A DNA stretch of 64,000 nucleotides from an uncultured Gammaproteobacteria bacterium (GCA_964522515.1 CAZFWC010000001.1:14536-78535); one strand, 5' to 3'. Shown: positions 1-63,243, numbered from the stretch's first letter. A program made the numbers and translations. Notes: generated by a model not told the origin, from the sequence alone.

Positions 1-29
1 TTTTTTCTTCGTGAGTCATTTTGAGTTTT

Positions 30-203
30 TCCGCCTTCGCCCCTAAAAAATCCTACTGGACTACGGCGGATACCTGTCTGCCGACAGGCAGGAATTCTTA
101 TTTAAAAAACACAGGAGCCTGTCCGCCGGCTTGCCCGCCGTAGCTTTTAGCGAAGGAGGGAGCTAGAGTTTTTTAGGATTGGGGGCGTAGGAGGATTAGG
201 CGA
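30..203. repeat. GC-rich composite palindromic element, full-length copy abutting stop codon of 204..1427
   Basis: CCGCCTTCGCCCC...CTACGGCGG / CCTGTCTGCCGACAGGCAGG / CTTGTGTTT..AAACACAGGAG / CCGCCGTAGC...GCGAAGGAGG...TTAGGCGA. Confidence 0.85.
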
Positions 204-5026: not shown

Positions 5027-7900
5027 TTACTGCATTTTTATTAAATAATATCCATCAGTTTCTAAGTTATCTTGATAAATAATTTTTTGTCCAGATTTGT
5101 TAAGTTTATTTTTAGCTTTGTGATCAATTATTTCAAAATCAGCAGGTAAAGTGATTTGACTTGTGAAATCAGTTAAAGATAATCCTGGTTGTTTTTGAAC
5201 AATTAAATTGTATTGCAAATTATTTTTTTGATTATTAAAATTTAAAAATCCAAATATTTTTTCAAAGAAATTTTCATCATTTTTTTCAAGTTTAAAAGGT
5301 AATTTATATTTTAAAATAATTTCTTTTGATTCATTTGGTTTTAAACTTAACCACCCAGCGAAAACAGTTTTATCAAATTCTTCAGTAATTCTAACATTAA
5401 ATTCTTCATTTAAAATAGGATTTTTTTCAATATTTTTTAAATCAACATCTTCAGTTAAATTTATTTGATTGTCAGCCGCAGCTTTAACAAGAAAACTTGG
5501 TTTAATTTCAAAACCATTTGCAGAAATTAATTTACTATTTTTTGGAACATAAAATTTAATATAATCTACATTTTCTGCTTTTTCAAAAATATCATTTAAA
5601 TCCCCGTTGTGTTTTCTTTTTAAAGAAACAGTATCAATTAAATCTCCATTAGAATTTATTTCAACAAAATGAGAAATTTGATTTTTAATTACTTTATCTG
5701 TTTTTCCACCTGCTAAACTAGCGTGAAAAATTGCAAGATAATCACCTTGTGTTTGCGCGATTTTTCCAGACCAAGAAAATTCATTTGCAACTTTTTGCAT
5801 TTCATTATTTTTAAACCACAAAAGAATATTTTTGTTGGATAAATTATTAAAAATTGTTTGCGCAAAAGTTGGTGTTTGATCAATTTTTAAATTAAAAATT
5901 TTTTCTAATAATTTTGGCATCAAATCCGCAATAATTTGTTTTGGTTTATTTTTTTCTTTGTTATATTCATATTCAACAGCCATTTGAATTTCTTTAGTAA
6001 AATTTTCTTGTGAAATTGTTTTTTCATAATTTGGCATTTCAATTGGACCAGTTATTTTTAGCAAATCTTTTATTAGATCAGGCGTTAGTGTAATTATTCC
6101 GTCCAAAGTTGTTCCCCCTAAAGTGTCTTCATAAAATAATGAGATTTTTTTTGCAGACGCTTCCCAATCTGCAAACCAATTTGCGTCCCAAATTTTCCAA
6201 TCAGGTGAAAAATGTTGTAGTTGTTTTGGAGCTTCAACTTGCATTTTAGTTGAGGCTTTTAAATCATAAAATCCTCCACCAGGAATTTTTAAATTAATAA
6301 TTTTTGCGTTTTGAATTTCAATTAAAGCATAAGACCCCATAAAACCGCCAGTTGGTCTGATTTCAGAATTGTTTTGAAAAATAATTAAATATCTCATTAT
6401 TTTATTTTGTCCTAAAAATGAATCTAAAAAAATATTTAAAGTTTTCAATTTATTTATATAATTTTTTAAAGCTGGCAACGAGGATTTAAATAAAATTAAT
6501 TTTTCAATATTTTCTTCATCAATATATTTGCTTAAAATGTCAACATCAATTTTATCTGCCTTATTTAAAAGTTCTAAAATTTGTGGTTCAATTTGTTTTA
6601 ATTTTTCAGAAGTTAATTTAATTTTTTCACTTAATTTGTTTTCTGAATTTGTGTTTGAATTTATTTTTTCTAATTCTTCACTAAGCTTAGAAATATCTTG
6701 ACCAAGTTCCGCAGATATTTGCCCAATTAATAATAAATTTTCAGCTTGTTGCGCTTCAGGAATAATTTTAATAATTTGTTTGCTAAAAATTCCTAAATTA
6801 GATAAATAATTTCGCGCAATTTTAAAATTAAAATACGCTTGTTCAAAATATTCATTTGCTTCATTAAAATCTAAATCTTTTGTTAAAATAGAAGCGTCTT
6901 TTAATAAATCTAATCCTTGAATTGATTTGCCTAAAACCTGTCCTTTGATTTGATTTGTTTTTTGTTTTAAATTTAAAATTTGTAAAGGCAAAACAATAAT
7001 TAAACAAACTAAAGCAAATGATAAAATTGGTTTAAAATTAATTTTTATTTTTATTTTTTTAAAAGCGGATTGCGTTGAAATTGGAATTGGAACTTTAGCA
7101 AATTTTGATTTTTTAAAAAATAAAATAAAAGTTTTTAAATTTAAAATAAATGATTTTGCTAAATTAAAAAAAGCTAAAGTTGTGTTTTTAATTAACCACC
7201 AAATTGATTTAAGCGAACGATCAACAATAAAATCTAAAACGCGAAATGGGAAAGTTATAATTTGCCAGATTAAATTTAAATTAACTTTTATTACTTTAAA
7301 TATTTTTTGCGCTAAAGTTAGGTCGCTAAAATCTGTTTGAATTATTTGCGATTTTTTTGTTTCTAATTCTAAAAAATTTTGTGTTAGATCAAGCTTAATT
7401 TTTGATTTTATTTTTTGTTTTTCTGGTTTGTAGTATTTAATTTTTTCAATAATTCCATCAGATTCATCTGGCGATTCAAAATCAATTTTTGGTTGCTGAT
7501 CAATTTGTTGAGTATCTTGTTTTCTTTTTTTTTCCTGAACAAAATTGCTAAACCAATCTTCTGTGTTAAAATTTGGAGTTGAAAAATTTGGTAAATTGTG
7601 AAGAGGTTCTTTTTCTTGAAATTCTAATTTCAATAAATTTTTATTTGGATGTTTTAAATCAAGCAAGTGATTTGATAAATTATGTTTTTGATTTGTAAAA
7701 TTTATTTTTGATTTTATTTTTCCTGCCCGCCGTAGCTTTGGCGAAGGAGGGCTGTTGTCTAGTTTTTCTTTATTTATAGAAACAGGAAAAACAAAATCCT
7801 CTGCCCAGTTATCTGATTGAATTTTTTTAAATTTATTTTTTAATTTATTTTTTTGCATATTAAAAAATTTATTGTCCCGAGTACTAGGGATTATCCACAC
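5027..7900 (-). CDS. large membrane-anchored protein, DUF4012-like (RPTGGFMGSY motif)
   Basis: single TM at about residue 290, C-terminal 600 aa with RPTGGFMGSY motif recalled from DUF4012 proteins; N-terminal 70 aa probably not real (GTG start overlaps palindromic elements; likely start near 7858 MQKNKL). Confidence 0.5.
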   Translation of the reverse strand: MWIIPSTRDNKFFNMQKNKLKNKFKKIQSDNWAEDFVFPVSINKEKLDNSPPSPKLRRAGKIKSKINFTNQKHNLSNHLLDLKHPNKNLLKLEFQEKEPLHNLPNFSTPNFNTEDWFSNFVQEKKRKQDTQQIDQQPKIDFESPDESDGIIEKIKYYKPEKQKIKSKIKLDLTQNFLELETKKSQIIQTDFSDLTLAQKIFKVIKVNLNLIWQIITFPFRVLDFIVDRSLKSIWWLIKNTTLAFFNLAKSFILNLKTFILFFKKSKFAKVPIPISTQSAFKKIKIKINFKPILSFALVCLIIVLPLQILNLKQKTNQIKGQVLGKSIQGLDLLKDASILTKDLDFNEANEYFEQAYFNFKIARNYLSNLGIFSKQIIKIIPEAQQAENLLLIGQISAELGQDISKLSEELEKINSNTNSENKLSEKIKLTSEKLKQIEPQILELLNKADKIDVDILSKYIDEENIEKLILFKSSLPALKNYINKLKTLNIFLDSFLGQNKIMRYLIIFQNNSEIRPTGGFMGSYALIEIQNAKIINLKIPGGGFYDLKASTKMQVEAPKQLQHFSPDWKIWDANWFADWEASAKKISLFYEDTLGGTTLDGIITLTPDLIKDLLKITGPIEMPNYEKTISQENFTKEIQMAVEYEYNKEKNKPKQIIADLMPKLLEKIFNLKIDQTPTFAQTIFNNLSNKNILLWFKNNEMQKVANEFSWSGKIAQTQGDYLAIFHASLAGGKTDKVIKNQISHFVEINSNGDLIDTVSLKRKHNGDLNDIFEKAENVDYIKFYVPKNSKLISANGFEIKPSFLVKAAADNQINLTEDVDLKNIEKNPILNEEFNVRITEEFDKTVFAGWLSLKPNESKEIILKYKLPFKLEKNDENFFEKIFGFLNFNNQKNNLQYNLIVQKQPGLSLTDFTSQITLPADFEIIDHKAKNKLNKSGQKIIYQDNLETDGYYLIKMQ
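7722..7755. repeat. intragenic in-frame GC-rich element core (in DUF4012-like gene)
   Basis: CCTGCCCGCCGTAGCTTTGGCGAAGGAGG; ORF continuous across it (…PPSPKLRRAG…). Confidence 0.8.
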
Positions 7901-10442: not shown

Positions 10443-12926
10443 TTAAATTAATTTTTCTAATTTTTTAATATATTTTTCAACTCCAATTTCTTTAACTGAT
10501 TCAACGCAATTGGTTGACATATTTGCTAGTTGTTTTTTATTTTGTAAACTAAATTTTAAAATTTTTAATAAATCTTCTGTATCACCAGCTTCAAAAGTAA
10601 AGCCGTTAAAATCATCTTTAATAAATTCAATCCCGCCAATTCGCGCAGCTAAAACTGGCACACCATTTGATAAACTTTCAAAAATAACTGTTGGTGAATT
10701 TTCGTAACATAAAGACGAAACAATTGTTGCGTTGGTCTGAACAAAAATTGTGTTCAACTCAGAATTAGGAATGTAGCCTTTGAAAATAATTTGAGAACAG
10801 TCACTAGCTAATTTTTTAGCTTCATCTAATGCTGTGCCTGTGCCTGCGATTAGAAGGTTAATGTTTTTATTATTATTTTGTTCAGATAATAATTTTTTAA
10901 AAACATTTATTAAAAATAAAACACCTTTGTATTTTTCAACTTGCCCAAGAAAAAGAAAAGTAAATTTATTATCATTTGCAATATTAGCAAATGTTTTAAT
11001 GTTTTGGTGCCTGTCCGCCGTAGCCCTGCCTTGCCGGCAGGCAGGTTTAGCGAAGGAGGATTTTAATGTTTTTATGTTGATTGGATTTGTGAGAATTATT
11101 TTTTTAGATTTTGGAAAAAATCTTCTTTGATTATAAAATTCAAGTAAAAATTTTGATGATGAAATTATAATTTCAGGATTATTAAAAGCCCAGCGATTAT
11201 AAATTTGATAAAGTTTTGTTAAGAAAAAATTGTGTTGCCAAGAGTTTTCTTCGTTTTTTAAAATTAAACCAGATGGTGTTGCAAGTTGAACTTCGTGAAG
11301 TGTGTGGATATTTTTTACTTTGCATTTTTTAATTGCGCGACAAGTTAAATATCCAACACCTTTTAACATATGAGTCATTGAAACTTCTGGTTTTTCTTTT
11401 TTTAAAATATATTTAATTACCCAATAAGAATGCAAGTTAAACATATCAAAAGCGTGCCAAAATAGTCGTAGAAATGGTCTGTGAGCGTATTTATTTATAT
11501 TTAAGTATGAAAACAGGTTTAAAGGATAAAAACGATAAATAATTAAGTTGTTTTCAATAGTTTTTTTAGGCAACAAACTGCGTAAATTTTTAAATTCACA
11601 AATTGTAATTATAAAAATTTTATGATTTGTTTTTTTAAATCCTTTGACAATATTATTAACCACTGTTTCAGCGCCACCTTTTGTGTAAGGCGCAAAAACT
11701 GAAGTGATAAGGCAAATGTGCTTTCCCGCCTTCGCCTTTAACAACTCTACTGGACTATGGCGGGCAAGCCCTTTATTTTTTTGAGTTGGTAGTTTAAATT
11801 TATAATAGTTAATAATTTTTTCACAAATTTTTTTCCAATTATATTCTTTTTCAACTTTTTTTCGTCCTTCTTGCCCAAATTGTTTTGTTTTTTCTGTATC
11901 GTTTATAAAAAATAATAATTTTTTTGCAAGATCTCGGGCGTCATTTGGTTTAACAATTAAACCAGATTTATTTTTATCAGATGTAACTCGTAATCCTGGC
12001 CAATCTGAAACAACAACAGGAGCGCCACAAGCCATTGCTTCTACTGCTGTAATTGAAAAACTTTCAGTTGGCTGCGTTGATGGAACTGGAACAACAGTTG
12101 CTAAATTATAATAAAGTGGCAATTCATTATGATCAATATTGCCCAAAAAAATTACTCCAAAGTGAACACTAAATTTGTTCACTAATTTTTTATAATAATT
12201 TAATAAATTACCTTCTCCTGCAATTAATAATTTTACATCTTGATGATTTATAATTTTTATTGCTTTTATTAAAACATCAATTCCTTTAAAAAAATGGGCT
12301 TTGTCCAAAGCTTGGGCAGTAAAAATTATTTTGTCTGTGTCTTTTAAATTTAATTTATTTTTAATATTTTCAGTATTTAAATTTGGTTTGAATTTTTCAA
12401 TATCAACACCGTTTGGTACAACTTTAAATTTTTCAGAATATTTAAAATAATATTTTTTGATTTTTGAATGACGCGCGTAATCATCTGATAAAACAAAAAC
12501 TTGGTCAACTGTTTTAAATAAAAACGGTGCAATAATTTTTTGGTGTAAATTATTAACAAATTTTGTAATTCCCTTGCCAACCATATCCATTTGATAATGA
12601 AAAATAATTTTTGGACATTTTTTTCTTTTAATTTTTTTTAAAAACCACAAAAATTCTGCAACACCAAAATACGGATAATACAAATGAACTACATCAAAAT
12701 TTTTAACTAATTTCATAATTTGTGGCGCAAAATCTGCATAACCAAAAGAAAATAATGGTTTAAATAATTTTATTTTAAAATTTCCTTGTTTATAATCAAT
12801 TTTTCTGTCAGCTAAAAATACTGTCACATTATGTGACTTTCCAATTTCATTTGCAGTGTAAAAACACGCTGTCCCCATTCCGCTTGAAAGTGGAGGAAAC
12901 ACTGGACTAATGTAAGCGATTTTCAT
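10443..12926 (-). CDS. two-domain (tandem) GT4 glycosyltransferase
   Basis: two GT-B/GT4 modules, each with a C-terminal E-X7-E-like region; carries two in-frame GC-rich element insertions. Confidence 0.7.
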   Translation of the reverse strand: MKIAYISPVFPPLSSGMGTACFYTANEIGKSHNVTVFLADRKIDYKQGNFKIKLFKPLFSFGYADFAPQIMKLVKNFDVVHLYYPYFGVAEFLWFLKKIKRKKCPKIIFHYQMDMVGKGITKFVNNLHQKIIAPFLFKTVDQVFVLSDDYARHSKIKKYYFKYSEKFKVVPNGVDIEKFKPNLNTENIKNKLNLKDTDKIIFTAQALDKAHFFKGIDVLIKAIKIINHQDVKLLIAGEGNLLNYYKKLVNKFSVHFGVIFLGNIDHNELPLYYNLATVVPVPSTQPTESFSITAVEAMACGAPVVVSDWPGLRVTSDKNKSGLIVKPNDARDLAKKLLFFINDTEKTKQFGQEGRKKVEKEYNWKKICEKIINYYKFKLPTQKNKGLARHSPVELLKAKAGKHICLITSVFAPYTKGGAETVVNNIVKGFKKTNHKIFIITICEFKNLRSLLPKKTIENNLIIYRFYPLNLFSYLNINKYAHRPFLRLFWHAFDMFNLHSYWVIKYILKKEKPEVSMTHMLKGVGYLTCRAIKKCKVKNIHTLHEVQLATPSGLILKNEENSWQHNFFLTKLYQIYNRWAFNNPEIIISSSKFLLEFYNQRRFFPKSKKIILTNPINIKTLKSSFAKPACRQGRATADRHQNIKTFANIANDNKFTFLFLGQVEKYKGVLFLINVFKKLLSEQNNNKNINLLIAGTGTALDEAKKLASDCSQIIFKGYIPNSELNTIFVQTNATIVSSLCYENSPTVIFESLSNGVPVLAARIGGIEFIKDDFNGFTFEAGDTEDLLKILKFSLQNKKQLANMSTNCVESVKEIGVEKYIKKLEKLI
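11010..11060. repeat. intragenic in-frame GC-rich element (tandem GT4 gene)
   Basis: CTGTCCGCCGTAGCCCTGCCTTGCCGGCAGGCAGGTTTAGCGAAGGAGG. Confidence 0.8.
11724..11770. repeat. intragenic in-frame GC-rich element, opposite orientation (tandem GT4 gene)
   Basis: CCCGCCTTCGCC...CTACTGGACTATGGCGGGCAAG. Confidence 0.8.
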
Positions 12927-12936
12927 ATTGATTTTT

Positions 12937-13105
12937 TCCGCCTTCGCCCCTAATCCCGAGTACTCGGGACTACTGGACTATGGCGGATAAATTTCTAGTT
13001 CAGTTTTAAATTTTTTTTAATTTAAAAAAATTTAAAACTGCATTAAGAGCCTGCCCGCCGTAGCTAGGATTTTTTAGAGTTGAGGCGAAGGAGGGTTAGG
13101 CGAAT
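12937..13105. repeat. GC-rich composite palindromic element (with CCCGAGTACTCGGG sub-hairpin) filling the GT4 / radical-SAM intergenic gap
   Basis: same modules as 30..203; ends at the stop codon of 13106..14233. Confidence 0.85.
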
Positions 13106-17241: not shown

Positions 17242-19359
17242 TTAATAAGCTAAAATCTCAACTTCCTCATCTTGATCAATATCAAATGCGCTTACTTTAG
17301 CGCCGTTGCGAGAATCTGGATCAAAAGCAAAAAACCCAGGATCAACTAAATGACCAATTTTATCATAAATCCTAATGTGCGGACCGCCAGTTAAACCTGC
17401 TCCTGTAATTATCTCATCTTTTCCATCATTATTCAAATCTAGGCAAGCAACATTTACGCCACCTCTGAATTTTAAATCATAAGAAAAAAATCCAGGATCA
17501 AATAAATGTCCGTCAGATCTGAAAATTCTAATGTGTGGACCGCCACCAAAACCAGCGCCAGTTACAATTTCTTTGTAACCATTTCCATTTAAATCACCTA
17601 AAGCCACATTTACTCCACCACGAAAATTTTTATTATAAGCAAACCAGCCTGTGTGAATTAAGTTTCCTTGATAATTAAAAATTCTAATTTGCGGTCCGCC
17701 ACCTTGTTGCGTTCCAGTTACAATTTCTAATTTTTTATCATCTTGAATATTTCCAATTGCAATATTAATTCCTGAATTATATTTTTCTCCATAAGGATAA
17801 AAAGTTTTAACTAAATTATTTTGAGAATTAAAAATTTTAACTGAATTTGAATTTGCCACAATTGTTTCAAATTTTCCATCTTGGTCTAAATCAGAAATAT
17901 TAATTTGTGCGCCACCTTCAAATTTTGATAAGTAAGCAAAAAAACCAGATCTTTTATTGTTTCCGCGTTTATCAAAAATTCTTAAATAAGAACCATTTAT
18001 AAAAGTTGTATTTATTAAATTAAATTCTTCTTGATTGTTTTCCTGATTAATTAATTCTAATTTTTTTAATAAAATAATTCCGTCTTGTGCTGGTAAAAAA
18101 ATTTGTTTAACCAATTCTCCGTTATTTATTTTTTTATCTTGCACCCCACGAATTTTTTCATAAACTGCATTGTTGTCTAAATTAATTATTTGATTTTGCT
18201 GTGTAGAATTAACTAAAGCAATTCCGTTTTCAAAATCACGACGCCAAATTCCTGATTCGTATTGAACACTAAATTTGTCTTGCCCGCCGTAGCCTTGGCG
18301 AAGGTGGGTCAGTAAATTTTGCGCGGAATTAATTGGTTGACCTAAATTAATATTGTATTCATCATACCACCAAAGTTGAGAGTGATCTTCTGTGCCAAAA
18401 TCAAACGCAAAATATCCATTTTCTAACAAACTTGAAGCTAAACCAAAACGCACTTTTTTAAAATTATTTTTATCACCAGTATTATTTGTATTTGGGTTTA
18501 AAATAATAATATGTGGTAAATAATTAATAGAATTATTTAAATTTTTATAATCATTCATTTGTCCAACCCAACTTCCTTGCCATTTGTCTGGCCAAGATTC
18601 ATAAATTCTACCGTTAATAAAATTTTTTGTGTAACTTGAACTGTTAATTAAAATAATTTTATTATTTCCTAATTCTTTTCTAGTATTTTCTAATAATTTT
18701 TTCATTCCTTCTTGCCACTGGTTGTCAGTTAAATTTGTATTATTAATTTTATCTAAAACATTATCAAAAAAAACTCCATCCCAATTTCCAGTGTTAATTA
18801 ATTCTTGTTTAACAAATTTGGGTAGCCAAGAATTAAATTCAGAATTCGTAACATTAAATGAATAATTTCCTGGCCAAATTGAGTGAATATTATTTTGTTT
18901 ATCTTTTAACCACCAAGATGAATTAATTTGCGCATACATTTTATGCCACGGACCATTTGAGCTTTCTAAAATTTTATAATTTTGAATTGGAAATTCCATT
19001 GAAGAAAGATAAGCAATAATTTTAATATTAGGATTAAGATTTTTTAATTCAGAAAAAATATTTAGGTTTGTGTCTTGAACTTGCATTCCTAAAATAACCA
19101 CATCCCATTTTGCTAATTTATTTATTTCAGAATTTGAAATTGGAGTTTTTAAATAATAATTTGCAAGTTTTGGGTAGCTGTTATAACTAGCTTGCGCTGG
19201 TTGTAAAAATAAAAAAAACGCTAAAAAAATTAACGCCAATAAAACAAAAAAAGCAACATTTTTAAAGTTATTTTTTAAATTTATAAATTTGCTCCAATTC
19301 TTTATAATATTGTTCAGAATTGTACAATTTAGCCACTTTTTGTTGAATTTCATATTCAT
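17242..19359 (-). CDS. secreted protein: N-terminal glycoside-hydrolase-like domain plus C-terminal FG-GAP/beta-propeller repeats
   Basis: signal/TM anchor; repeated DxDxDG...VTGAGxGGGPHIRIF units (FG-GAP-like); contains an in-frame GC-rich element. Confidence 0.55.
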   Translation of the reverse strand: MNMKFNKKWLNCTILNNIIKNWSKFINLKNNFKNVAFFVLLALIFLAFFLFLQPAQASYNSYPKLANYYLKTPISNSEINKLAKWDVVILGMQVQDTNLNIFSELKNLNPNIKIIAYLSSMEFPIQNYKILESSNGPWHKMYAQINSSWWLKDKQNNIHSIWPGNYSFNVTNSEFNSWLPKFVKQELINTGNWDGVFFDNVLDKINNTNLTDNQWQEGMKKLLENTRKELGNNKIILINSSSYTKNFINGRIYESWPDKWQGSWVGQMNDYKNLNNSINYLPHIIILNPNTNNTGDKNNFKKVRFGLASSLLENGYFAFDFGTEDHSQLWWYDEYNINLGQPINSAQNLLTHLRQGYGGQDKFSVQYESGIWRRDFENGIALVNSTQQNQIINLDNNAVYEKIRGVQDKKINNGELVKQIFLPAQDGIILLKKLELINQENNQEEFNLINTTFINGSYLRIFDKRGNNKRSGFFAYLSKFEGGAQINISDLDQDGKFETIVANSNSVKIFNSQNNLVKTFYPYGEKYNSGINIAIGNIQDDKKLEIVTGTQQGGGPQIRIFNYQGNLIHTGWFAYNKNFRGGVNVALGDLNGNGYKEIVTGAGFGGGPHIRIFRSDGHLFDPGFFSYDLKFRGGVNVACLDLNNDGKDEIITGAGLTGGPHIRIYDKIGHLVDPGFFAFDPDSRNGAKVSAFDIDQDEEVEILAY
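18279..18310. repeat. intragenic in-frame GC-rich element core (FG-GAP protein gene)
   Basis: CTTGCCCGCCGTAGCCTTGGCGAAGGTGGG. Confidence 0.8.
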
Positions 19360-26846: not shown

Positions 26847-26953
26847 TTTCAGTTCTCCTTAGTTAATAAATTGTGAAATATTTTTTATATTTATTATTTA
26901 TTTCGTCACCACTACTCACAAAAATGAGTAGCAGGTGAAAAAATAAACACTAG

Positions 26954-27008
26954 AGCCTGTCCGCCGTAGTCCAGTAGTGTTTGTTAAGGGCGAAGGCGGG
27001 TTAGGCGA
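26954..27008. repeat. GC-rich element, short copy abutting stop of 27009..28472
   Basis: CTGTCCGCCGTAGTCCAGTAG...GGCGAAGGCGGGTTAGGCGA. Confidence 0.8.
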
Positions 27009-29360: not shown

Positions 29361-30167
29361 TTACTTTGTCAAAATTTCACTTCCTTTTTCAGTTACTAAA
29401 ATTGTGTGTTCAAAATGCGCAGCTAAGGAATTGTCTTCGGTTTTAAACGCGTTAGTTTTTTTATCAACAACAACATCTGGATTCCCAGCTGTAACCATTG
29501 GCTCAATTGCTAAAGTCATTCCTGATTTTAAAATCGGACCAGTTCCTTTTTTCCCAAAATTTGGAATTTGTGGAGGCTCGTGCAATTTTTTTCCAACCCC
29601 GTGCCCAACTAATTCATAAACCACGCTAAATTTATTTTTTTCAACAAATCTTTGAATTTCATAAGAAATATTACCTAAATAAATTCCTGGTTTTATTTTT
29701 TTAATTGCTAAATCCAAAGATTTTTTAGTTACACTCAGAAGTTTTTTTGTTGAATGAGAAATTTTTCCAATTGAAACTGTTTTTGCCATATCTGTAATCA
29801 TTCCATTCCCTCCTTCGCCAAGCCTGCCTGACGGCAAGGCAGGGCTACAGCGGGCAGGTTTTGCAGGATATCTTAATCCAATATCAATACTTAAAATATC
29901 TCCATCTTGTAAAATGCGATTTGGAATTGCTGGCGCGTGCACAACTTCATTATTAATACAAGTACAAATCGCTGTTGGAAATCCTTGATAACCTTTAAAT
30001 ATTGGCCAACCATTTATTTTTTTTATTTCTTTTTCCGCTAATTCATTTAGTTCTTTTGTGCCAACACCAATATCAGCTTTTTTAATAAGCAAATTTAAAA
30101 TTCGCGCTAAATGTTTTCCGCATTCTCGCATTATTTCAATTTCTTTTGGGGTTTTTATGATAATCAT
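29361..30167 (-). CDS. map: methionine aminopeptidase type I
   Basis: MetAP pita-bread fold motifs (HGVGKKLHEPPQIPNFG, metal ligands); carries about 57-bp in-frame GC-rich element insertion. Confidence 0.85.
   Translation of the reverse strand: MIIIKTPKEIEIMRECGKHLARILNLLIKKADIGVGTKELNELAEKEIKKINGWPIFKGYQGFPTAICTCINNEVVHAPAIPNRILQDGDILSIDIGLRYPAKPARCSPALPSGRLGEGGNGMITDMAKTVSIGKISHSTKKLLSVTKKSLDLAIKKIKPGIYLGNISYEIQRFVEKNKFSVVYELVGHGVGKKLHEPPQIPNFGKKGTGPILKSGMTLAIEPMVTAGNPDVVVDKKTNAFKTEDNSLAAHFEHTILVTEKGSEILTK
29808..29866. repeat. intragenic in-frame GC-rich element (map)
   Basis: CCTCCTTCGCCAAGCCTGCCTGACGGCAAGGCAGGGCTACAGCGGGCAGG. Confidence 0.8.
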
Positions 30168-30174
30168 TTTTTTC

Positions 30175-32967: not shown

Positions 32968-32970
32968 ATT

Positions 32971-33402: not shown

Positions 33403-33471
33403 AAAATTTTGTAATCTGTAATCCGTAATTTGTAACTTGTAAATTTATTTTAAATAATTACAAATTACAAG
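33403..33471. repeat. inverted arrays of TGTAAYN heptamers in the rpsE-rplO spacer (where L30 would lie)
   Basis: TGTAATC TGTAATC CGTAATT TGTAACT TGTAAAT ... AATTACA AATTACA AGTTAC. Confidence 0.7.
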
Positions 33472-33951: not shown

Positions 33952-33960
33952 AATTTATTT

Positions 33961-34096
33961 CTCCGCCTTCGCTTCTAAAAAATCCTACTGGACTACGGCG
34001 GATAAACTCTTGTGTTTAAAATTTAAAAAACATAGGAGCCTGTCCGCCGTAGCTAGAGTTTTTTTAGGATTGAAGGCGGAGGAGGATTAGGCGCAA
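33961..34096. repeat. GC-rich composite element between rplR and rpsE
   Basis: shared modules; right end at rplR stop, left end 9 nt from rpsE start. Confidence 0.85.
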
Positions 34097-34528
34097 TTAA
34101 AATTTAAAACCTGCTTTACGAGCACCTTCTGCTACTGCTTTAACTCGTCCGTGATATTTATATTTTGATTTATCAAAAACACAAGTTTTTATTTTTTTTG
34201 CAATTGCTTTTTTTGCTAAAAGTTTTCCAACTTCAAAAGATATTAATATTTTATTAGTTAGTTTATTATTATTTTTTTTATTTTCAACTCCTTCCTTTCC
34301 CTGCCCGTCAGGCAGACGGGTTAATTTCTCAATTTCTTTTTTATTTATTTCTTTATCACTTGCGCTAACTAATGTTTTGCCTTTTTCATCATCAATTAAT
34401 TGCGCTGAAATATTTTTTAAACTTCTAAATACGCTTAATCTTGGTTTTGTTGCTGTACCAAAAATTTGAGCTCTTACACGGGCTTTTCTTCTTTGCTGTT
34501 TTTTATTTTTTATTTTTTGTGGATTCAT
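34097..34528 (-). CDS. rplR: 50S ribosomal protein L18 (with in-frame palindrome insertion)
   Basis: L18 conserved N- and C-terminal blocks; operon position. Confidence 0.85.
   Translation of the reverse strand: MNPQKIKNKKQQRRKARVRAQIFGTATKPRLSVFRSLKNISAQLIDDEKGKTLVSASDKEINKKEIEKLTRLPDGQGKEGVENKKNNNKLTNKILISFEVGKLLAKKAIAKKIKTCVFDKSKYKYHGRVKAVAEGARKAGFKF
34299..34322. repeat. intragenic GC palindrome module (rplR)
   Basis: CCTGCCCGTCAGGCAGACGGG. Confidence 0.6.
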
Positions 34529-34531
34529 ATT

Positions 34532-35086
34532 TTAAGTTGTAGCTCCTTTCGCTTGCTTCCCTGCTTTTCTGCGAATTACTTCATCAACATATTTAATTCC
34601 TTTTCCTTTGTAAGGTTCTGGTTTTTTAATTTTTCTAATTTGCGCTGAAGTCTCCCCAACTAAATATTTATCAAAACCTTTAACAATAATTATATTTTTT
34701 TCAACAGAAATGTCAATATTTTCTGGAATTTTAAAATTAACTTGATGCGAAAAACCCACATTTAAAATTAATTCTTGTCCTTTAACCACAGCTTTGTAAC
34801 CAACTCCGTTAATTTCTAATTTTTTTTCAAATCCTTCTGTCACACCAATAATCATATTATTAATTAATTGTCTAAAAGTTCCCCAAACAGATTTTTCTTT
34901 TTTTACTTCTTTATTTTTTACATCAACTGTTAATTCTTTTTTATCATCTGAAAAAATTAGTTTAATTTCTGGAATTAATTTTTGTTTTAATTCTCCTTTT
35001 GGTCCTTTGACAACCACAAAATCAGCATCAATTTTTACATCAATTTTTTCTGGAATTAAAATTGGTTTTTTCCCGATTCTAGACAT
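34532..35086 (-). CDS. rplF: 50S ribosomal protein L6
   Basis: two L6 alpha/beta repeats; SRIGKKPI N-terminus. Confidence 0.9.
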   Translation of the reverse strand: MSRIGKKPILIPEKIDVKIDADFVVVKGPKGELKQKLIPEIKLIFSDDKKELTVDVKNKEVKKEKSVWGTFRQLINNMIIGVTEGFEKKLEINGVGYKAVVKGQELILNVGFSHQVNFKIPENIDISVEKNIIIVKGFDKYLVGETSAQIRKIKKPEPYKGKGIKYVDEVIRRKAGKQAKGATT

Positions 35087-35096
35087 AAATTTATAA

Positions 35097-35282
35097 TTTA
35101 TCCGCCTTCGCCCCTAAAAAATCCTATTGGACTACGGCGGATACCTGTCTGCCGACAGGCAGGAACTCTTGTGTTTAAAATTTAAAAAACACAGGAGCTT
35201 GCCTCCTCCTTCGCTAAAGCTACGGCGGGACAGGCGCCGTAGCAATTAAAGAGTTGCTAGGGAGCGAAGGAGGGGAAGCGAT
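35097..35282. repeat. GC-rich composite element between rpsH and rplF
   Basis: full module set incl. CCTGTCTGCCGACAGGCAGG palindrome. Confidence 0.85.
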
Positions 35283-35720
35283 TTAATAAATTTCACAAAC
35301 TACTTCCCCACCTAAATTTTCTTTCTTAGCTTTCACATTTGTCATTAATCCTTTTGATGTTGAAATAATTGCAATACCGTAATTATTTAAAACTACTGGC
35401 AAATTATCTTTTGAAACATAAATTCTGCGACCTGGTTTTGAAATTCTTTTTATTTTGCTAATTTTAGGATTATTTCCATTGTAAAATAATTTAATTTTTA
35501 ATTGATTAAATTTAGCATTTTTTTCTTGCGCGCTTTTTGCAACAATTTTTTTAGAAATTTGTGGTTCTATTTTTTCAACGTCTTTAATCCATTTTTCTGT
35601 TTCTAAAATTTTAGCAATATTAAATTTTAATTTTGAATACGGCAAAATCACCTCAAGTTTTTTAACTGCTTGAGCGTTTCTAATTCTTGTTAACATATCT
35701 GCGATTGGATCTGTGTACAT
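35283..35720 (-). CDS. rpsH: 30S ribosomal protein S8
   Basis: DPIADMLTRIRNA N-terminus, GGE..CEIY C-terminus. Confidence 0.9.
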   Translation of the reverse strand: MYTDPIADMLTRIRNAQAVKKLEVILPYSKLKFNIAKILETEKWIKDVEKIEPQISKKIVAKSAQEKNAKFNQLKIKLFYNGNNPKISKIKRISKPGRRIYVSKDNLPVVLNNYGIAIISTSKGLMTNVKAKKENLGGEVVCEIY

Positions 35721-35734
35721 AATTTTGTAATTTC

Positions 35735-35900
35735 TCCGCCTTCGCCCTTAAAAAATCCTTTAACACTACGGCGGATAAATTTTTAGTGTTTTTTTATAAA
35801 AAAGAATTAAGAGCCTGCCCGCGCCGGCTTGTCCGCCGTAGCCTTTGGCAAGGAGGAAGCTAGAGTTTTTTTAGAGTTGAAGCGAAGGAGGGTTAGGCGA
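35735..35900. repeat. GC-rich composite element between rpsN and rpsH
   Basis: shared modules. Confidence 0.85.
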
Positions 35901-36086
35901 CTACCAACTTGATTTTTTAATTCCTGGAATTTCGCCTTTGTTTGCTAATTCTCTAAAGCAAATTCTACACAAACCAAAATCTCGCATAAAACCTCTGTTT
36001 CTACCACAACGCCAACAACGATTCACTTTTTGCGTTGTGAATTTTGGTTTTCTTTTTGATTTTGCGATTTGCGCTTTAGTTGCCAT
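35901..36086 (-). CDS. rpsN: 30S ribosomal protein S14 type Z (zinc-binding)
   Basis: 61 aa, CWRCGR...CRIC zinc ribbon. Confidence 0.9.
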
Positions 36087-36096
36087 AAAAGTTTTT

Positions 36097-36221
36097 CTCC
36101 GCCTTCGTTCCCTAAAAATCCTACTGGACTACGGCGGATAAACTCTTGTGTTAAAAAAACACAGAAGCTTGCCCGCCGTAGCTGGGACTTTTAGGATTGA
36201 AGCGAAGGAGGGGAAGCTAAA
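36097..36221. repeat. GC-rich composite element between rplE and rpsN
   Basis: shared modules. Confidence 0.85.
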
Positions 36222-36764
36222 TTATTTCTGAAATGGAAACCCAAATAATTTTAATAATTCAAAACCTTGTTCTTTGTTTTTTGCTGTTGTTGTAATTGCT
36301 ACTTCTAAGCCGTGAATTGTTTCAACTTTTGACATTTCAATTTCTGCAAAAGCAGTGTGGTCTTTAAATCCTATATTTAAATTACCTTGTTTGTCAATAT
36401 TTTTTTGATTAATCCCTCTAAAATCTCTAACCCTTGGCAAAGTAACATTAATTAATTTATCAAAAAAATCATACATTCTATTTCCGCGCAATGTGACTTT
36501 TGCTCCAACAATATTTCCTTGTCTTGTTTTAAAAGCTGAAATTGCTTTTTTAGCTTTTGTAAAAATTGGTTTTTGTCCAGTAATTTTAGTTAAAGTTTTT
36601 TCAATTAATTCTAAATATTTATTTTCTCTTTTTGATGTTGAAATTCCTACATTTAAAGTTATTTTTTCTAATTTTGGAACAGCTAAATTATTTTTAAAAC
36701 CAAACTTTTCCTTAAGCGCAGGAATAATCTCGACAGTAAATTTATTTTTTAGACGATTTGACAT
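36222..36764 (-). CDS. rplE: 50S ribosomal protein L5
   Basis: L5 conserved blocks; operon position. Confidence 0.9.
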   Translation of the reverse strand: MSNRLKNKFTVEIIPALKEKFGFKNNLAVPKLEKITLNVGISTSKRENKYLELIEKTLTKITGQKPIFTKAKKAISAFKTRQGNIVGAKVTLRGNRMYDFFDKLINVTLPRVRDFRGINQKNIDKQGNLNIGFKDHTAFAEIEMSKVETIHGLEVAITTTAKNKEQGFELLKLFGFPFQK

Positions 36765-36831
36765 ACAATATTATTGTTTATTATTTTTTATAATTTTACC
36801 CGAATTTTTATGAATTGTTTTATTCGGGTGG

Positions 36832-37188: not shown

Positions 37189-37192
37189 ATTT

Positions 37193-37564: not shown

Positions 37565-37569
37565 AAAAA

Positions 37570-38437: not shown

Positions 38438-38452
38438 AATTTTTTATAGTTT

Positions 38453-38598
38453 ATCCGCCTTCGCCCCTAATCCCGAGTACTCGGGACTACTGGACTACGG
38501 CGGATACCTGTCTGCCGACAGGCAGGAACTCTTGTGTTAAAAAAGCACAGGAGCTTGCCCGCCGTAGCTAGGACTTTTAGGGTTGAAGCGAAGGAGGG
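38453..38598. repeat. GC-rich composite element between rpsC and rplP
   Basis: shared modules incl. CCCGAGTACTCGGG sub-hairpin. Confidence 0.85.
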
Positions 38599-39240
38599 TT
38601 AAACAAATTTTTCACCTTTATAAATCCAAATCTTAACTCCAATTGCTCCGTAAGTTGTGCGAGCTGTTGCTGTTCCATAATCAATATCAGCGCGCAAAGT
38701 GTGCAAAGGAATTTTTCCTTGAGTTAATTTTTCAGTGCGAGCAATTTCTACTCCGCCTAATCTTCCAGCGCAATGAACTTTCACACCTTGCGCACCAGCT
38801 TTTATAATTGCTTCAATATTTCTTTTCATTGAACGACGGTACGGAATTCTTTTTTCTAATTCAAGAGCAATATTTTGCGCCATTATTTGCGCGCAAAGTT
38901 GTGGCTTGTTAACTTCTTTTATATTAATTTGTAGTTTGATTTTTTTATTTTTTATAATTTTTTTTAATAAATAATTTTTAATTTCTTCAACTCCAACTCC
39001 GCCTCGCCCAATAATAATTCCTGGTTTTGATGAATGCAAAATTATATTAATGTTGTCGGGTGATCTTTCAATTTCAACACTTTTTAAACTGCAGTCCCTA
39101 AGTTTACTATTTAAATATTCTCTCAATTTTGTATCTTGTTCAAGTTGTCGCGCAAAAGCAGGTCCACGCTTAAACCAGCGAGAAGCCCAATTTTCGCTTA
39201 AACCAATTCTGAAAATTTTAGGATTTACTTTGTGACCCAT
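38599..39240 (-). CDS. rpsC: 30S ribosomal protein S3
   Basis: KH domain and S3 C-terminal domain (GRLGGVEIARTE). Confidence 0.9.
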   Translation of the reverse strand: MGHKVNPKIFRIGLSENWASRWFKRGPAFARQLEQDTKLREYLNSKLRDCSLKSVEIERSPDNINIILHSSKPGIIIGRGGVGVEEIKNYLLKKIIKNKKIKLQINIKEVNKPQLCAQIMAQNIALELEKRIPYRRSMKRNIEAIIKAGAQGVKVHCAGRLGGVEIARTEKLTQGKIPLHTLRADIDYGTATARTTYGAIGVKIWIYKGEKFV

Positions 39241-41162: not shown

Positions 41163-41356
41163 TTTTCCGCCTTCGCCCCTAATCCCGAGTACTCGGGACT
41201 ACTGGACTACGGCGGATACCTGTCTAGCTGACAGGCAGGAACTCTTGTGTTTAAAATTTAAAAAACACAGGAGCTTGCCTCCTCCTTCGCTAAAGCTACG
41301 GCGGACAGGCGCCGTGGCAATTAAAGGGTCGCTAGGGAGCGAAGGAGGGGAAGCGA
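41163..41356. repeat. GC-rich composite element between rplW and rplB
   Basis: near-identical to 35097..35282 plus sub-hairpin. Confidence 0.85.
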
Positions 41357-41853: not shown

Positions 41854-42618
41854 TTATTTATTTTTTAAATATATTTTTTCAATTATTTCTAAACTTTTTT
41901 CAATAATTAATATTTTCTCAAACTTCAAAAGATCCAAAACATTTAAACTGTCTGCTGTTGTGATTTTAATTCCTTGCAAATTTTTTCCTGCGCTAAATAT
42001 TTTTCTGTCTGCTTTTTCTAAAATAATTAATAATGATAATTTGTAATTTTTAATGTCAAAATTGCGCTTTCCCTCCTTCGCTCCCTGAGTGTCCTTTATC
42101 ACTTCGGCGGGCAAGCTTTTAGTTTTTTTTGTTTTCTTTTCAATCTCTTTAATATTTATTATACTTTTTAAATTTTTCAAAATTTCAACAAATTCTTTTG
42201 TTTTACCTTCAGCTAAATTTAATTTGTCTAATAAAATAAATAAATTATTGTTTACTTTATCAGACAAACACATAAATAATGCTTTTGTTTTTTGTTTTTT
42301 ATTAACTTTTTTAGAAAAGTTTCTGTCTTTTGTGGGTCCAAAAGTCACACCGCCCCCAACCCAAATTGGTGAACGACTTGAACCGTGTCTTGCGCGTCCA
42401 GTTCCTTTTTGTTTCCAAGGTTTTTTCCCACCACCGCGAACTTCACTTTTATCTTTTGTGTGAGCAATCGCAACTCTTGAATTTGCCATTTGCGCAACTG
42501 CGACTTGATGTACAACAGAATTTTTTATTTCAATTCCAAAAATTTTAGAATTTAATTCTAGTTCTTTTACTTTTTCTCCAAGTTGGTTGTAGATTTGTAT
42601 TTTTTTCATGTTAGTCAT
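41854..42618 (-). CDS. rplD: 50S ribosomal protein L4 (C-terminally extended, with in-frame element insertion)
   Basis: L4 core blocks; operon position. Confidence 0.85.
   Translation of the reverse strand: MTNMKKIQIYNQLGEKVKELELNSKIFGIEIKNSVVHQVAVAQMANSRVAIAHTKDKSEVRGGGKKPWKQKGTGRARHGSSRSPIWVGGGVTFGPTKDRNFSKKVNKKQKTKALFMCLSDKVNNNLFILLDKLNLAEGKTKEFVEILKNLKSIINIKEIEKKTKKTKSLPAEVIKDTQGAKEGKRNFDIKNYKLSLLIILEKADRKIFSAGKNLQGIKITTADSLNVLDLLKFEKILIIEKSLEIIEKIYLKNK
42070..42116. repeat. intragenic in-frame GC-rich element (rplD)
   Basis: CCTCCTTCGCTCCCTGAGTG...CTTCGGCGGGCAAG. Confidence 0.75.
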
Positions 42619-46199: not shown

Positions 46200-46400
46200 T
46201 TTATTTATGATTTGCTAACAACCTTTCCCTAAAGGGAAAGTTTTCTCCAGTTGTTAGAGTTAATTTTTTTATTAATTAAATTTTAACAGATGCTAAAAAT
46301 AATGTCAAACAACAAACCCAAAGTTCAAAGTTAAAAGCTCAAAAAAATATCAAATACTAAATATTAAATTTTTAAATAAAATTTTTTCTAAAAGAACAAG

Positions 46401-46458
46401 GAGCCTGTCCGCCGTAGCTAGAGTTTTTTAGGATTGGGGGCGTAGGCGGATTAGGCGA
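46401..46458. repeat. GC-rich element short copy abutting stop of acidic protein gene
   Basis: GAGCCTGTCCGCCGTAGC...TTTTTTAGGATTGGGGGCGTAGGCGGATTAGGCGA. Confidence 0.8.
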
Positions 46459-50503: not shown

Positions 50504-52636
50504 TTATTTATTTTTTCCTTCCACAATTTCCTCTGCCACATTTTTCGGAACTTCTGCGTAGTGATGAAATTCCATTGTTGAAGTTCCACGGCCTTGAGTA
50601 ATTGAACGCAAAGTTGTAACATATCCAAACATTTGAGCCAAAGGCACTTCCCCATCAATAACTTTTAAATTCCCGCGCTCTTTCATTTCATTAATTTTCG
50701 CGCGTCTAGAACTTAAATCACCAATCACATCACCCATATATTCTTCAGGCACAAGAACTTCAATTTTCATAATTGGTTCAAGCAAAATTGAACCCGCATT
50801 TTTAGCAGCTGCTTGAAAAGCAATTGAGCCCGCCATTTTAAACGCAATTTCAGAAGAATCAACTTCGTGAAAAGATCCATCAAACACACTTGCTTTAATA
50901 TCTACCATTTGATAACCAGCAACAATTCCTCGGCTCATTGCTTCTTTAACGCCTTTTTGAATTGCTGGAATATATTCTTTTGGAATCACTCCGCCTTTAA
51001 TTGCGTCAACAAATTCAAAATTTTCTGTTTTAAGAGATTGATCTTTAGAATCTTTTTCTTTTGGTTCAATTCTAAGCCAGCAGTGTCCATATTGTCCGCG
51101 TCCACCAGATTGTTTAATATATTTTCCTTCTGCTTCAGCTATTTTTTTAATTGTTTCTTTGTAAGCAACTTGCGGTTTGCCAACATTACATTCAACTTTA
51201 AATTCTCGTTTCATTCTTTCAACTAAAACATCTAAATGCAATTCTCCCATTCCCGAAATAATTGTTTCTAAAGTTTCTTCATCGGTTTTAATTTGAAAAG
51301 TTGGATCTTCTTGCGCTAATTTATTTAAAGCCAATCCCATTTTTTCTTGATCAGTTTTTGTTTTTGGTTCAACAACAACTGAAATTACTGGCACTGGAAA
51401 AATAATTTTTTCTAACACAACAGGACTATTTTCACTACAAATTGTGTCGCCAGTTGTTGTTTGTTTTAATCCAACAGCCGCGGCAATTTCACCAGAAAAA
51501 ACTTCATCAACATCTTCTCGCGAGTTTGCGTGCATTCTTAAAATTCGTCCTAATCTTTCTTTTTTCCCAGTAGTTGTGTTTAAAATATAAGTTCCAGCTT
51601 TAATTGTTCCGGAGTAAACTCTAAAAAAAGCCAAACTGCCAACAAAAGGATCAGTTGCAATTTTAAAAGCTAAAGCAGAAAACGGTTCTTTGTCATCAGC
51701 TTTTCTAATTTCTTTTTGAGATTCCCTGTCCGCCGTAGCTTTAGCGAAGGAGGAATTTTTTGGATTAAAACCTTGAACAGACGGGACATCTAAAGGCGAA
51801 GGCAAAAAATCATTAACAGCGTCCAAAACAAACTGCACACCAATATTTTTTAAAGCAGAACCTGCTAAAACTAAATAAATATTATTTGATAAAGTTCCTT
51901 TTCTTAAACCTTTTTTAATTTCGTCAATATTTAATTCTTTTCCATTTAAAAATTTTTCTAACAAATCATCATCTTGTTCAGCGGCTTTTTCAATTAATTC
52001 TGCGCGATATTTTTCAGCCTGCTCTTTTAAATCAGCTGGGATTTCAATTTCATTAATTTCTTCGCCGTGCTCTCCTTTAAATTCAAAAGCTTTCATTTCT
52101 AAAATATGAATTACGCCTTTTAAATTTTCTTCAGCTCCAATTGGAATTGTATAAGCAATTGCGTTTGGATTTAATCTTTGTTTAATTGATTCAATACTCA
52201 TTTTAAAATCCCCGCCCATTTTATCCATTTTATTAATAAAAGCGATTCTTGGAACTTTGTATTTATCAGCTTGACGCCAAACAGTTTCTGATTGTGGCTC
52301 AACACCTTGGGCTCCGTCAAAAACCGCAACTGCTCCGTCAAGCACACGCAAACTTCTTTCAACTTCTGCTGTAAAATCAACATGACCCGGAGTGTCAATA
52401 ATGTTGTAGCAAAAATCTTTCCAAAAACAAGTTGTCGCTGCTGAAGTAATTGTAATTCCTCTTTCTTTTTCTTGTTCCATCCAATCCATTTCAGATTCAC
52501 CTGTGTGAGTCTCGCCAATTTTGTGTTTTTTTCCAGTGTAAAATAAAACACGCTCTGTAAAAGTTGTTTTACCAGCATCAATGTGGGCTATTATTCCAAT
52601 ATTTCTAGTTTTTTCTAAAGTATATTTTCTTGGCAT
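50504..52636 (-). CDS. fusA: elongation factor G (with in-frame GC-rich element insertion)
   Basis: [18 protein letters not shown]-motifs, full five-domain length. Confidence 0.95.
51724..51755. repeat. intragenic in-frame GC-rich element core (fusA)
   Basis: CTGTCCGCCGTAGCTTTAGCGAAGGAGG encodes ...AKATADRES... in an EF-G loop that is longer than in E. coli EF-G. Confidence 0.8.
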
Positions 52637-53538: not shown

Positions 53539-53546
53539 TTTTATTT

Positions 53547-53632
53547 CTCCGCCTTCGCCCCTAAAAAATCCTACTGGACTACGGCGCCTGTCCGCCGTAG
53601 CCTTGGCAAAGGAGGAGATAAACTCTTGTGTT
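53547..53632. repeat. GC-rich element upstream of rpsL start
   Basis: CTCCGCCTTCGCCCC...CTACGGCGCCTGTCCGCCGTAGCC...GGAGG. Confidence 0.8.
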
Positions 53633-53766
53633 AAATTATTTTAAATTATTGATATTAAAAAAACCATCTTTTGATGATTAAAAAATAATCTACATTAAGA
53701 TTAAACTATTTTAAAAATTGTGTCAAATAAAAAAAGTAATCTGTAAATTGTAAATTGTAAAAAAAT

Positions 53767-56897: not shown

Positions 56898-56945
56898 CCT
56901 GCCTGCCCGCCGTAGCTTTAGCGAAGGAGGGTCCTGAGGAGGAAC
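56898..56945. repeat. GC-rich element core upstream of ychF
   Basis: CCTGCCTGCCCGCCGTAGCTTTAGCGAAGGAGGG. Confidence 0.75.
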
Positions 56946-63190: not shown

Positions 63191-63243
63191 AGCCCGCCAG
63201 CCGAAGCAATAAAGGGTTGTTAAAGGCGAAGGCGGGTGAGCGA
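63191..63243. repeat. GC-rich element short copy abutting ftsB stop
   Basis: GCCCGCCAGCCGAAGC...GGCGAAGGCGGGTGAGCGA. Confidence 0.7.

Follow-up and report, generated by a model that had tools for sequence, protein, structure and literature searches.

The 64,000-nucleotide (nt) stretch of DNA analysed here, hereafter the window, has a GC content of ~28% and carries nearly all of its genes on the minus strand. A standard S10-spc ribosomal protein operon, running from S10 to SecY without L30, lies at 31681-44465. S8 homologues place the organism in the Patescibacteria, also known as the candidate phyla radiation (CPR). This report concerns a family of GC-rich repeat elements, one copy of which fills the spacer between the S8 and L6 genes (S8>L6; upstream gene named first). 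The window holds 12 intergenic and at least seven intragenic copies of the family (Table 1), and the intergenic copies are all co-oriented with transcription. The canonical 5' terminus of the element abuts the stop codon of the upstream gene. Over all aligned stretches, eight metagenome contigs drawn from several samples match the window at 99.7-100% identity. Hence, the window sequence is not an assembly artefact.

Layouts and junctions were read in the sense of the mRNA, that is, on the minus strand. The building block is a unit of ~30-45 nt, (TCGCCTAAY)CCKCCTTCGC-linker-CTACGGCGGRCARG. Single units are found at operon ends and inside open reading frames (ORFs). Elements of 130-200 nt contain two inverted units, to which small hairpin modules may be added. 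In such an element the stop codon (TAA or TAG) is followed, after 0-3 nt, by TCGCCTAAY-CCTCCTTCGCC, a linker and CTACGGCGGRCAGGC. Next come an A/T loop and the optional hairpin modules (CCTGCCTGTCGGCAGACAGG, TCCCGAGTACTCGGGA). The 3' half reads TCCGCCGTAG…GGGGCGAAGGCGGA, DAAAMT, a few A/T bases and ATG. The outer stem of full copies is CCUCCUUCGCC/GGCGAAGGCGG. Terminal inverted repeats of 11-13 nt are present (arms CCKCCTTCGCC and GGCGAAGGMGG) and contain one constant mismatch. The termini are asymmetric; TCGCCTAAY occurs at one end only and the other end is …GGCGGA.

On the plus strand, the S8>L6 copy begins TCCGCCTTCGCC (35101) and ends …GGGGAAGCGA (35281). Its 5' terminus, TCGCTTCCCC, is 1 nt from the S8 stop codon (TTA on the plus strand, 35283-35285). 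The 3' GGCGGA (TCCGCC on the plus strand) is 14 nt from the L6 start codon (CAT, 35084-35086). A search of Rfam with positions 33900-36300, at the gathering threshold and at E≤5, returned tRNAs and noise only. One full element, the L18>S5 copy, had no blastn match among plasmid and phage records. The literature held nothing relevant on the DNA strings of the element, on its encoded peptides, or on repetitive extragenic palindromic (REP) sequences or MITEs (miniature inverted-repeat transposable elements) in Patescibacteria.

Table 1. Copies of the repeat family in the window, and the length of the matching empty spacer in the relative L089. Free energies (ΔG) are in kcal/mol; distances in nt refer to the mRNA sense.
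Feature	Coordinates	Strand	Details	Empty spacer in L089 (nt)
Full element 3' of M23 peptidase gene	26..203	-	TAG-TCGCC, 0 nt; 3' end 10 nt from next ATG	
DUF4012 protein, in-frame unit	7722..7751	-	encodes PPSPKLRRAG	
GT4 glycosyltransferase, unit plus hairpin module, in frame	11010..11062	-	second unit, opposite orientation, 11722-11768	
Full, radical-SAM/glycosyltransferase spacer	12931..13103	-	starts 2 nt past TAA, ends 10 nt from ATG; z -7.0	
GHL15/FG-GAP protein, in-frame unit	18280..18309	-	encodes LRQGYGGQ	
Half (singlet) unit	26950..27008	-	0 nt from stop 27009; 5' arm CCGCC; T-rich tract next; 162-nt spacer	
Methionine aminopeptidase (MetAP), unit plus hairpin module, in frame	29809..29858	-		
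Full, L18>S5 spacer	33958..34094	-	starts 2 nt past TAA, ends GGCGGAGAAATAAATT-ATG; ΔG -55.9, z -7.3	12
L18, in-frame insert (7 aa)	34290-34320			
Full composite, S8>L6 spacer	35101..35281	-	three consecutive hairpins; ΔG -79.6, z -6.7	4
Full, S14>S8 spacer	35731..35900	-	TAG-TCGCC, 0 nt	17
Full, L5>S14 spacer	36094..36219	-	5' terminus truncated (AGCTTCCCC), 3 nt past TAA	6
Full, S3>L16 spacer	38452..38601	-	S3 stop (38599-38601) is the element's own TAA, inside CGCCTAAC	15
L22, in-frame insert	39527-39564			
Full composite, L23>L2 spacer	41163..41356	-	TAG-TCGCT, 0 nt; ends 9 nt from ATG; ΔG -89.3	6
Ribosomal protein L4, in-frame unit	42072..42115	-	lies in a 24-aa segment that L089 and L092 lack	
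Half (singlet) unit	46394..46458	-	0 nt from stop 46459; 259-nt spacer	
EF-G, short in-frame unit	51725..51769	-		
Copy upstream of S12	53544..53640	-	without canonical 5' terminus; ~126 nt from nearest stop; 3' end 9 nt from ATG	
Single unit, ychF 5' leader	56902..56932	-	~70 nt past upstream stop, so not stop-adjacent	
Half (singlet) unit	63197..63243	-	0 nt from stop 63244, TAA-TCGCT	

All 11 canonical 5' termini in the window lie at -8 to +3 nt of a minus-strand stop codon. The initial annotation had listed eleven stops as adjacent to an element, and every one of them was verified in the mRNA sense. At six (204, 27009, 35901, 41357, 46459 and 63244) the gap between the stop and TCGCC or TCGCT is 0 nt, so that the junction reads exactly TAR-TCGC. 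The gap is 1 nt at 35283, 2 nt at 13106 and 34097, and 3 nt at 36222, where the terminus is truncated. At 38599, S3 terminates on a TAA supplied by the element. An nhmmer census of the window found no canonical 5' terminus beyond these eleven.

We compared these positions with chance expectation. Assuming uniform insertion in non-element spacer, the Fisher-combined p over 12 copies was 2.5e-5; for the eight full copies between genes it was 0.007. When any TAA or TAG in the spacer was accepted as a target, the joint probability for the three half copies, which sit in spacers of 162-260 nt, was 8e-4. An additional ~20 kb of flanking DNA from the same genome contained no new canonical 5' terminus and hence gave no out-of-sample test. 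We also scanned metagenomes with the terminus alone, blind to the sequence preceding it. This identified five new low-GC termini on contigs of the same or related organisms. Three of these start 0 nt past a stop codon and, at another, rpoA ends at the internal TAA of the element. The fifth is promoter-proximal, just downstream of a -10 box. Pooling the window and the scan, 15 of 16 canonical termini are at -8 to +3 nt of a stop codon. Stop adjacency is confirmed as more than chance.

The closest relative with a usable contig, L089, has the same operon and an S8 that is 76-81% identical. At the same six junctions its spacers are empty (Table 1) and are made of A/T only. Hence, the elements are lineage-specific insertions. 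For five of the six ribosomal proteins concerned (L23, S14, S8, L5 and L18) the last five codons are collinear between the window and L089. Since the stop codon and A/T leader are intact, and the C-termini collinear, the elements occupy polycistronic spacers with neither gene damaged. To this extent the earlier proposal, that the elements are adapted to polycistronic spacers, holds; the part of it that had them supply a Shine-Dalgarno (SD) sequence is not supported. As judged from these alignments, the copies entered, or were kept, exactly at the pre-existing stop boundary, and the A/T leader of the next gene remains downstream. Between near-identical strains, inner modules have been swapped and indels are present; a different inner module is carried, for instance, by the L5>S14 element of contig L005. 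A genome-contig profile search with S8 gave only distant relatives among the matches listed (best 60%) and did not help to locate empty sites.

Contigs L003 (3597-3640) and L005 (2326-2370) depart from the window inside the S8>L6 element, at ~35124, and run on into S4-rpoA. This departure is either assembly chimerism or real recombination between repeat copies.

At the start-codon side, GGCGGA is 9-16 nt from the ATG in each of the nine copies with a 3' end. This matches the 8-15 nt given by the initial annotation, which is the distance counted from GGCGGAG, and the string quoted there, GCGAAGGCGGAGAAATAAATT-ATG, is exact at L18>S5. An A-rich tail, DAAAMT, recurs past GGCGGA, and native spacer makes up the next 3-10 nt. 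The 9-16 nt preceding the ATG would then be the element's own A-rich tail (GGCGGA-DAAAMT) together with the native leader. In several copies this leader is mostly unpaired in the predicted folds (probability of pairing 0.13-0.61).

The same end had been proposed to act as an SD sequence at reasonable spacing. We find instead that the motif is paired, that it reads GGCGG and not GGAGG, and that the genes are mostly SD-less. Scored without the organism's own 16S 3' end in sight, a genuine SD (ΔG ≤ -9 kcal/mol) precedes 4 of 65 window genes. These four, at 1642, 8002, 23825 and 25866, are of the AGGAGG type and range from -9.4 to -12.5 kcal/mol. The leader of a typical window gene is pure A/T. 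In L089, the orthologues of the six genes downstream of elements have A/T-only spacers of 4-17 nt and no SD; genes downstream of elements need none. For the element motif, a duplex with the anti-SD is predicted at -7.2 to -7.9 kcal/mol and requires a bulge. GGAG is present in four of the nine window copies with a 3' arm, the other five reading GGCGGA followed by T or A. GGCGG is kept in 13 of 14 copies; one C to A change, seen only once, would make the stem perfect and also create a perfect AAGGAGG. GAAGGCGGAG forms the 3' strand of the outer stem, opposite CCUCCUUCGC, and the mean pairing probability of the motif is 0.66-1.00 in the predicted ensemble. Its distance from the ATG, 8-16 nt, is at or beyond the usual SD optimum. 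Because the motif is paired, its mismatch conserved and the genes SD-poor, we read GGCGGAG as stem and not as SD. The predicted folds indicate that it is probably a stem strand rather than a functional SD, with a weak SD effect possible after melting of the stem.

A window segment of higher GC content (0.37 at 24001-26000), possibly foreign DNA, contains two of the four clear SDs (23825 and 25866).

Each full copy is predicted to fold as a long hairpin or a string of hairpins, with a ΔG of -48 to -89 kcal/mol. Compared with dinucleotide shuffles, z was -4 to -7 in eight of nine copies and -1.8 in the other. In the predicted folds, the outer stem of full copies starts 1-15 nt past the stop codon. 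Substitutions in the arms are mostly uncompensated, and the same U·C mismatch has been inherited in 13 of 14 copies. Thus, the arm differences give no sign that an RNA helix has been under selection. In 11 of 12 copies the predicted antisense fold is more stable than that of the mRNA, which argues against strong selection on mRNA structure. The family behaves like decaying selfish DNA rather than a selected RNA helix.

The sense-oriented 5' arm carries CCTCC in 14 of 14 full copies. In all three half copies at operon ends it is CCGCC, which pairs perfectly with the unit's own GGCGG. The self-hairpins of the half copies are somewhat stronger (-14 to -15 versus -9 to -12 kcal/mol), have loops of ~30 nt and are followed by T-rich tracts. 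As far as the predicted hairpins indicate, this split could mean that units at operon ends act much like terminators and that termination is avoided within operons. A promoter and terminator scan found no mRNA-strand U-tract terminator at the 3' ends of full copies; the sole mRNA-strand terminator calls were short hairpins internal to three elements. Weak antisense promoter-like matches occur inside two elements only.

The metagenome scan also matched many contigs of 45-68% GC, from soil (L103-L207). On about ten of these the 18-nt query is followed by GCTACGGCGG, which the query did not contain. In five or six independent cases the TAA of the unit is the stop codon of an ORF of 93-483 codons; one such ORF is ilvB, immediately upstream of ilvN. 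On soil contigs, ORFs ending in this way include some of 265-483 codons. Phage contigs scanned with CCTTCGC-N4-GCTACGGCGG gave 56 matches, compared with 28 for a reversed control. As the raw count is only twice the control, the cross-taxon claim rests on conserved flanks: CCG or CCT, which was not part of the query, precedes 38 of 52 distinct phage matches, and many of these also have RCARG. Eight of the 38 phage units lie 1-3 nt past the stop codon of an ORF of at least 80 codons, versus none of 25 controls. On phage contig L241, two spacers read TGA-T-unit-ATG. Thus, the stop-abutting habit is not peculiar to this genome. We put forward, tentatively and as something we would not bet on, that (T)CCKCCTTCGC-N4-GCTACGGCGG-RCARG, ~30 nt long, is an undescribed cross-phylum hairpin that abuts stop codons in a CPR bacterium of 28% GC, soil bacteria of 54-68% GC and phages. 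Its position, from 0-1 nt past the stop codon to a few nt short of the next start codon, could stem from an insertion mechanism that recognises gene ends, or from a conserved role between cistrons in termination-reinitiation or processing, including hairpin-bridged coupling in SD-poor organisms. We found no publication of the core-unit sequences in the literature.

In IMG/VR phage contigs (L226-L281, 38-71% GC), and in the metagenome contigs of 45-68% GC, the core unit CCKCCTTCGC-N4-GCTACGGCGG-RCARG frequently takes up the spacer between two cistrons; heptamer arrays flank it in L246 and L254.

On balance, we lean towards reading the family as a lineage-specific, GC-rich, modular, nested-palindromic and non-autonomous repeat of a ~28% GC Patescibacteria genome. 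Between genes it would resemble MITEs or the group formed by REPs, bacterial interspersed mosaic elements (BIMEs) and REP doublets forming hairpins (REPINs); inside genes it would resemble Rickettsia palindromic elements (RPEs). Placement would be set by an insertion preference for the stop-codon boundary together with purifying selection. With intercistronic spacers of only 4-17 nt, the A/U-rich leader needed for initiation would have been left intact. The element would place a very stable hairpin between cistrons, and this may be tolerated or mildly useful, for example in 3'-end protection or as a processing site.

Several observations weigh against such a mobile, stop-targeting repeat. In operons, much of the adjacency is forced, because the ancestral spacers of 4-17 nt offer few possible positions. 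Unrelated hairpins, here and in the relative L094, likewise begin 0-3 nt past stop codons; therefore, selection or compaction alone might explain the placement without targeting. Selection in a compact, SD-poor genome may thus be at least part of the explanation. The element ends given here are provisional, the empty sites being those of L089 (S8 76-81% identical). Nine junction pairs, all in A/T-only flanks, showed no consistent target-site duplication. Neither a transposase nor a REP-associated tyrosine transposase (RAYT) was found among the ~60 ORFs of the window (Pfam) or in the ~20 kb of flanks (precomputed Pfam annotations), and no insertion sequence (IS) was seen in the sequence examined. 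Finally, the ~30-nt unit is near-identical across genomes of very different GC content, which could mean conserved function and not selfish spread.

Unrelated hairpin repeats fill window spacers at 40224-40316, 33403-33471, 41804-41853, 39904-39926 and 61365-61475, starting 0-2 nt past the stop codon and ending 6-16 nt from the ATG. A/T-rich heptamers (GTAATTT/TTACAAG, GAAATTGA) arranged in inverted arrays make up these repeats, along with a single TCCCGAGTACCCGGGA palindrome. Heptamer arrays lie in L2>S19 and S5>L15, and the TCCCGAG palindrome in S19>L22. The spacers of L094 contain CCAGTAAC arrays in the same layout of stop, hairpin, leader and start. In another related contig, L121, a tRNA-Gly(GCC) gene has a unit, CCTGCCCGCCGAAGCAAAGCGTAG, at its 5' end (~1420-1520), and GCGGG stands on either side of that unit; this is the sole hint of a target-site duplication.

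Of the competing explanations, the simplest denies any positional specificity and treats the adjacency as what any insertion into a spacer of 4-17 nt would produce. The empty spacers of L089 have this length, and p = 0.007 is all that the eight full copies give when taken alone. Yet three half copies lie 0 nt from a stop codon in spacers of 162-260 nt, nine junctions read exactly TAR-TCGC, and the 0-1-nt junction is repeated by copies outside the window and by phage and soil units. We therefore consider the explanation improbable. Similarly improbable is that GGCGGAG serves the downstream gene as an SD, translation being preserved or coupled once a terminating ribosome has melted the outer stem. 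A ribosome positioned on the stop codon would open the 5' arm and so free the 3' arm. GGAG is found 8-13 nt before the ATG in four copies, its predicted anti-SD duplex of -7.2 to -7.9 kcal/mol is stronger than that of most window genes, and one related copy (L121) has a true AGGAGGAG. Against this stand the 61 of 65 window genes, and all the L089 orthologues, that do without an SD, together with the five of nine 3'-arm copies lacking GGAG, the retention of a C mismatch at the centre of the motif in 13 of 14 copies, the pairing probability (0.66-1.0) and the spacing at or beyond the optimum.

A selected intercistronic RNA device is possible, if rather unlikely. Here, a hairpin based 1-11 nt past the stop codon would protect 3' ends, provide an RNase III site or bring the stop and AUG together for shunt-like reinitiation in an SD-poor host. 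Both ends of the element are precisely placed, its orientation is strictly co-directional with transcription and long, near-perfect stems are predicted. The layout of stop, hairpin, leader and start is common to the unrelated hairpin families of the window and L094, and to the unit in phage L241. All 14 full in-operon copies have CCUCC, versus CCGCC plus a T-rich tail in the three operon-end singlets. Furthermore, E. coli REPs within 15 nt of a stop codon affect translation (PMC12306157). Conversely, the operon of L089 runs with spacers of 4-17 nt and no hairpins, stem mutations are uncompensated and, for 11 of 12 copies, the more stable fold is predicted for the antisense strand. Units inside ORFs, in several frames and both orientations, are typical of selfish insertion. 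Recombination sites of the integron attC kind were considered too. GCCTAAC fits the RYYYAAC consensus of an R'' core (GTTAGGC at the plus-strand element end), the stop codon falls inside the site in some copies, as attC sites also begin at or over the cassette stop, and two tyrosine recombinase genes lie just beyond the left end of the window. However, the opposite end is GGCGGAGAAA, which is not a complementary core site, and the copies are dispersed in essential operons and ORFs with no cassette array. The recombinases score best as XerC/XerD, far below the cut-offs for integron integrases. An attC identity is thus effectively refuted, and we regard it as very remote.

With the mobile repeat as the favoured reading, the family can be set beside known ones. 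REPs are mostly downstream of ORFs, their GTAG termini often supply the stop codon, and some are inside ORFs (PMC3733652). In E. coli, about half of the REPs are positioned no more than ~15 nt from a stop codon, where they can stall ribosomes (PMC12306157, citing its ref. 17). Like REPs, BIMEs and REPINs, the elements here are short, GC-rich, imperfect palindromes that occur as singlets and as inverted doublets forming long hairpins. They too lie mostly downstream of ORFs in co-directional or convergent spacers, have termini that touch or supply stop codons, and are in some cases intragenic. Thus, the family has the ~30-45-nt repeated extragenic palindrome downstream of ORFs, and the inverted doublets, that define REPs and REPIN/BIME arrangements. 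It lacks their terminal tag (GTAG or CGTC): GTAG is conserved here but internal (CCGCCGTAG/CTACGGCGG), in the loop of the singlet fold, and the element termini are TCGCCTAA… and …GGCGGA. The unit is a two-part stem with a 14-30-nt loop, whereas a REP is a compact 6-9-bp stem with a small loop. The elements are, moreover, mosaics that include additional hairpin modules; neither the window nor ~20 kb of flanks yielded a RAYT; and the host is a CPR bacterium of 28% GC, a group for which we found no REP or MITE report.

The resemblance to RPEs lies in the palindromic repeats of a reduced, AT-rich genome, located between genes and in frame in conserved protein genes. In-frame copies here are in EF-G, L4, L18, MetAP, GT4, DnaK and the S17 of relative L092. 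The sequences are unrelated to RPEs as far as tested, and the units are far more GC-rich than the host genome; stop-codon-precise placement has not been reported for RPEs. RPEs carry a CGTC tag (PMC3733652).

With MITEs, such as the Neisseria Correia, ERIC/IRU and RUP families, the elements share a length of 100-200 nt, terminal inverted repeats and long-hairpin transcripts. MITEs insert between co-transcribed genes, with known effects on mRNA processing or stability. Unlike MITEs, the family has asymmetric termini and strict orientation, and neither target-site duplication nor parent IS was identified here. The G+C clusters of yeast mitochondria are also GC-rich mobile palindromes of an AT-rich genome; they are intergenic, occasionally in frame in a gene, and are reported to have short TAG or AG flanks. 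They differ in their eukaryotic organelle host, unrelated sequences and lack of any link to operon spacers. The elements make up a new family within an established class of repeats, a class that seems not to have been described from this phylum before.

CPR genomes are regarded as minimal and streamlined. In this one, GC-rich hairpins have lengthened six spacers of the essential S10-spc operon from about 4-17 nt to 135-200 nt. This growth, together with the in-frame copies in EF-G, L4 and MetAP, points to active repeat invasion in such genomes. In practice, the repeats break or chimerise metagenome assemblies (L003 and L005), create spurious database peptides such as SFAKATADK and can mislead the prediction of SDs and terminators. 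The central question is why a conserved 30-nt unit sits with nucleotide precision past stop codons in very different genomes. As this placement recurs in phage and soil contigs, it offers a handle on how small repeats find gene ends. It also offers one on how translation of cistrons separated by a stable hairpin is maintained in SD-poor bacteria.

Inside genes, units and hairpin modules use several reading frames and both orientations, and the ORFs are kept open. Peptides encoded by the in-frame inserts include RLGEGG. Further in-frame inserts were found in DnaK and the CCA-adding enzyme, both outside the window, and in S17 of the relative L092. The nucleoside diphosphate kinase encoded at 55235-55837 is 200 aa long and has its Pfam match in two stretches, which suggests another insertion. 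Other small repeat families lie near gene starts (16183-16253, 30164-30234, 3722-3784, 17068-17180 and 30705-30842). These, for example TGTCATCCCGAG…GGGATCCC and AAGCACGCGAATT…CAGAATAAACCAGAATTT, are unrelated to the element described here.

A tRNA-Thr(CGT) gene (62943-63130, plus strand) is split past the D-loop by a 111-nt insert (62967-63077). The insert comprises an element-like arm, CCTGCCCGCCCTAGCC, an intact tRNA-Thr(CGT) at 62985-63059 and a second arm, AAGGCGATGGCAGGCGGGG. Removal of the 111 nt in silico restores a tRNA called by ARAGORN.

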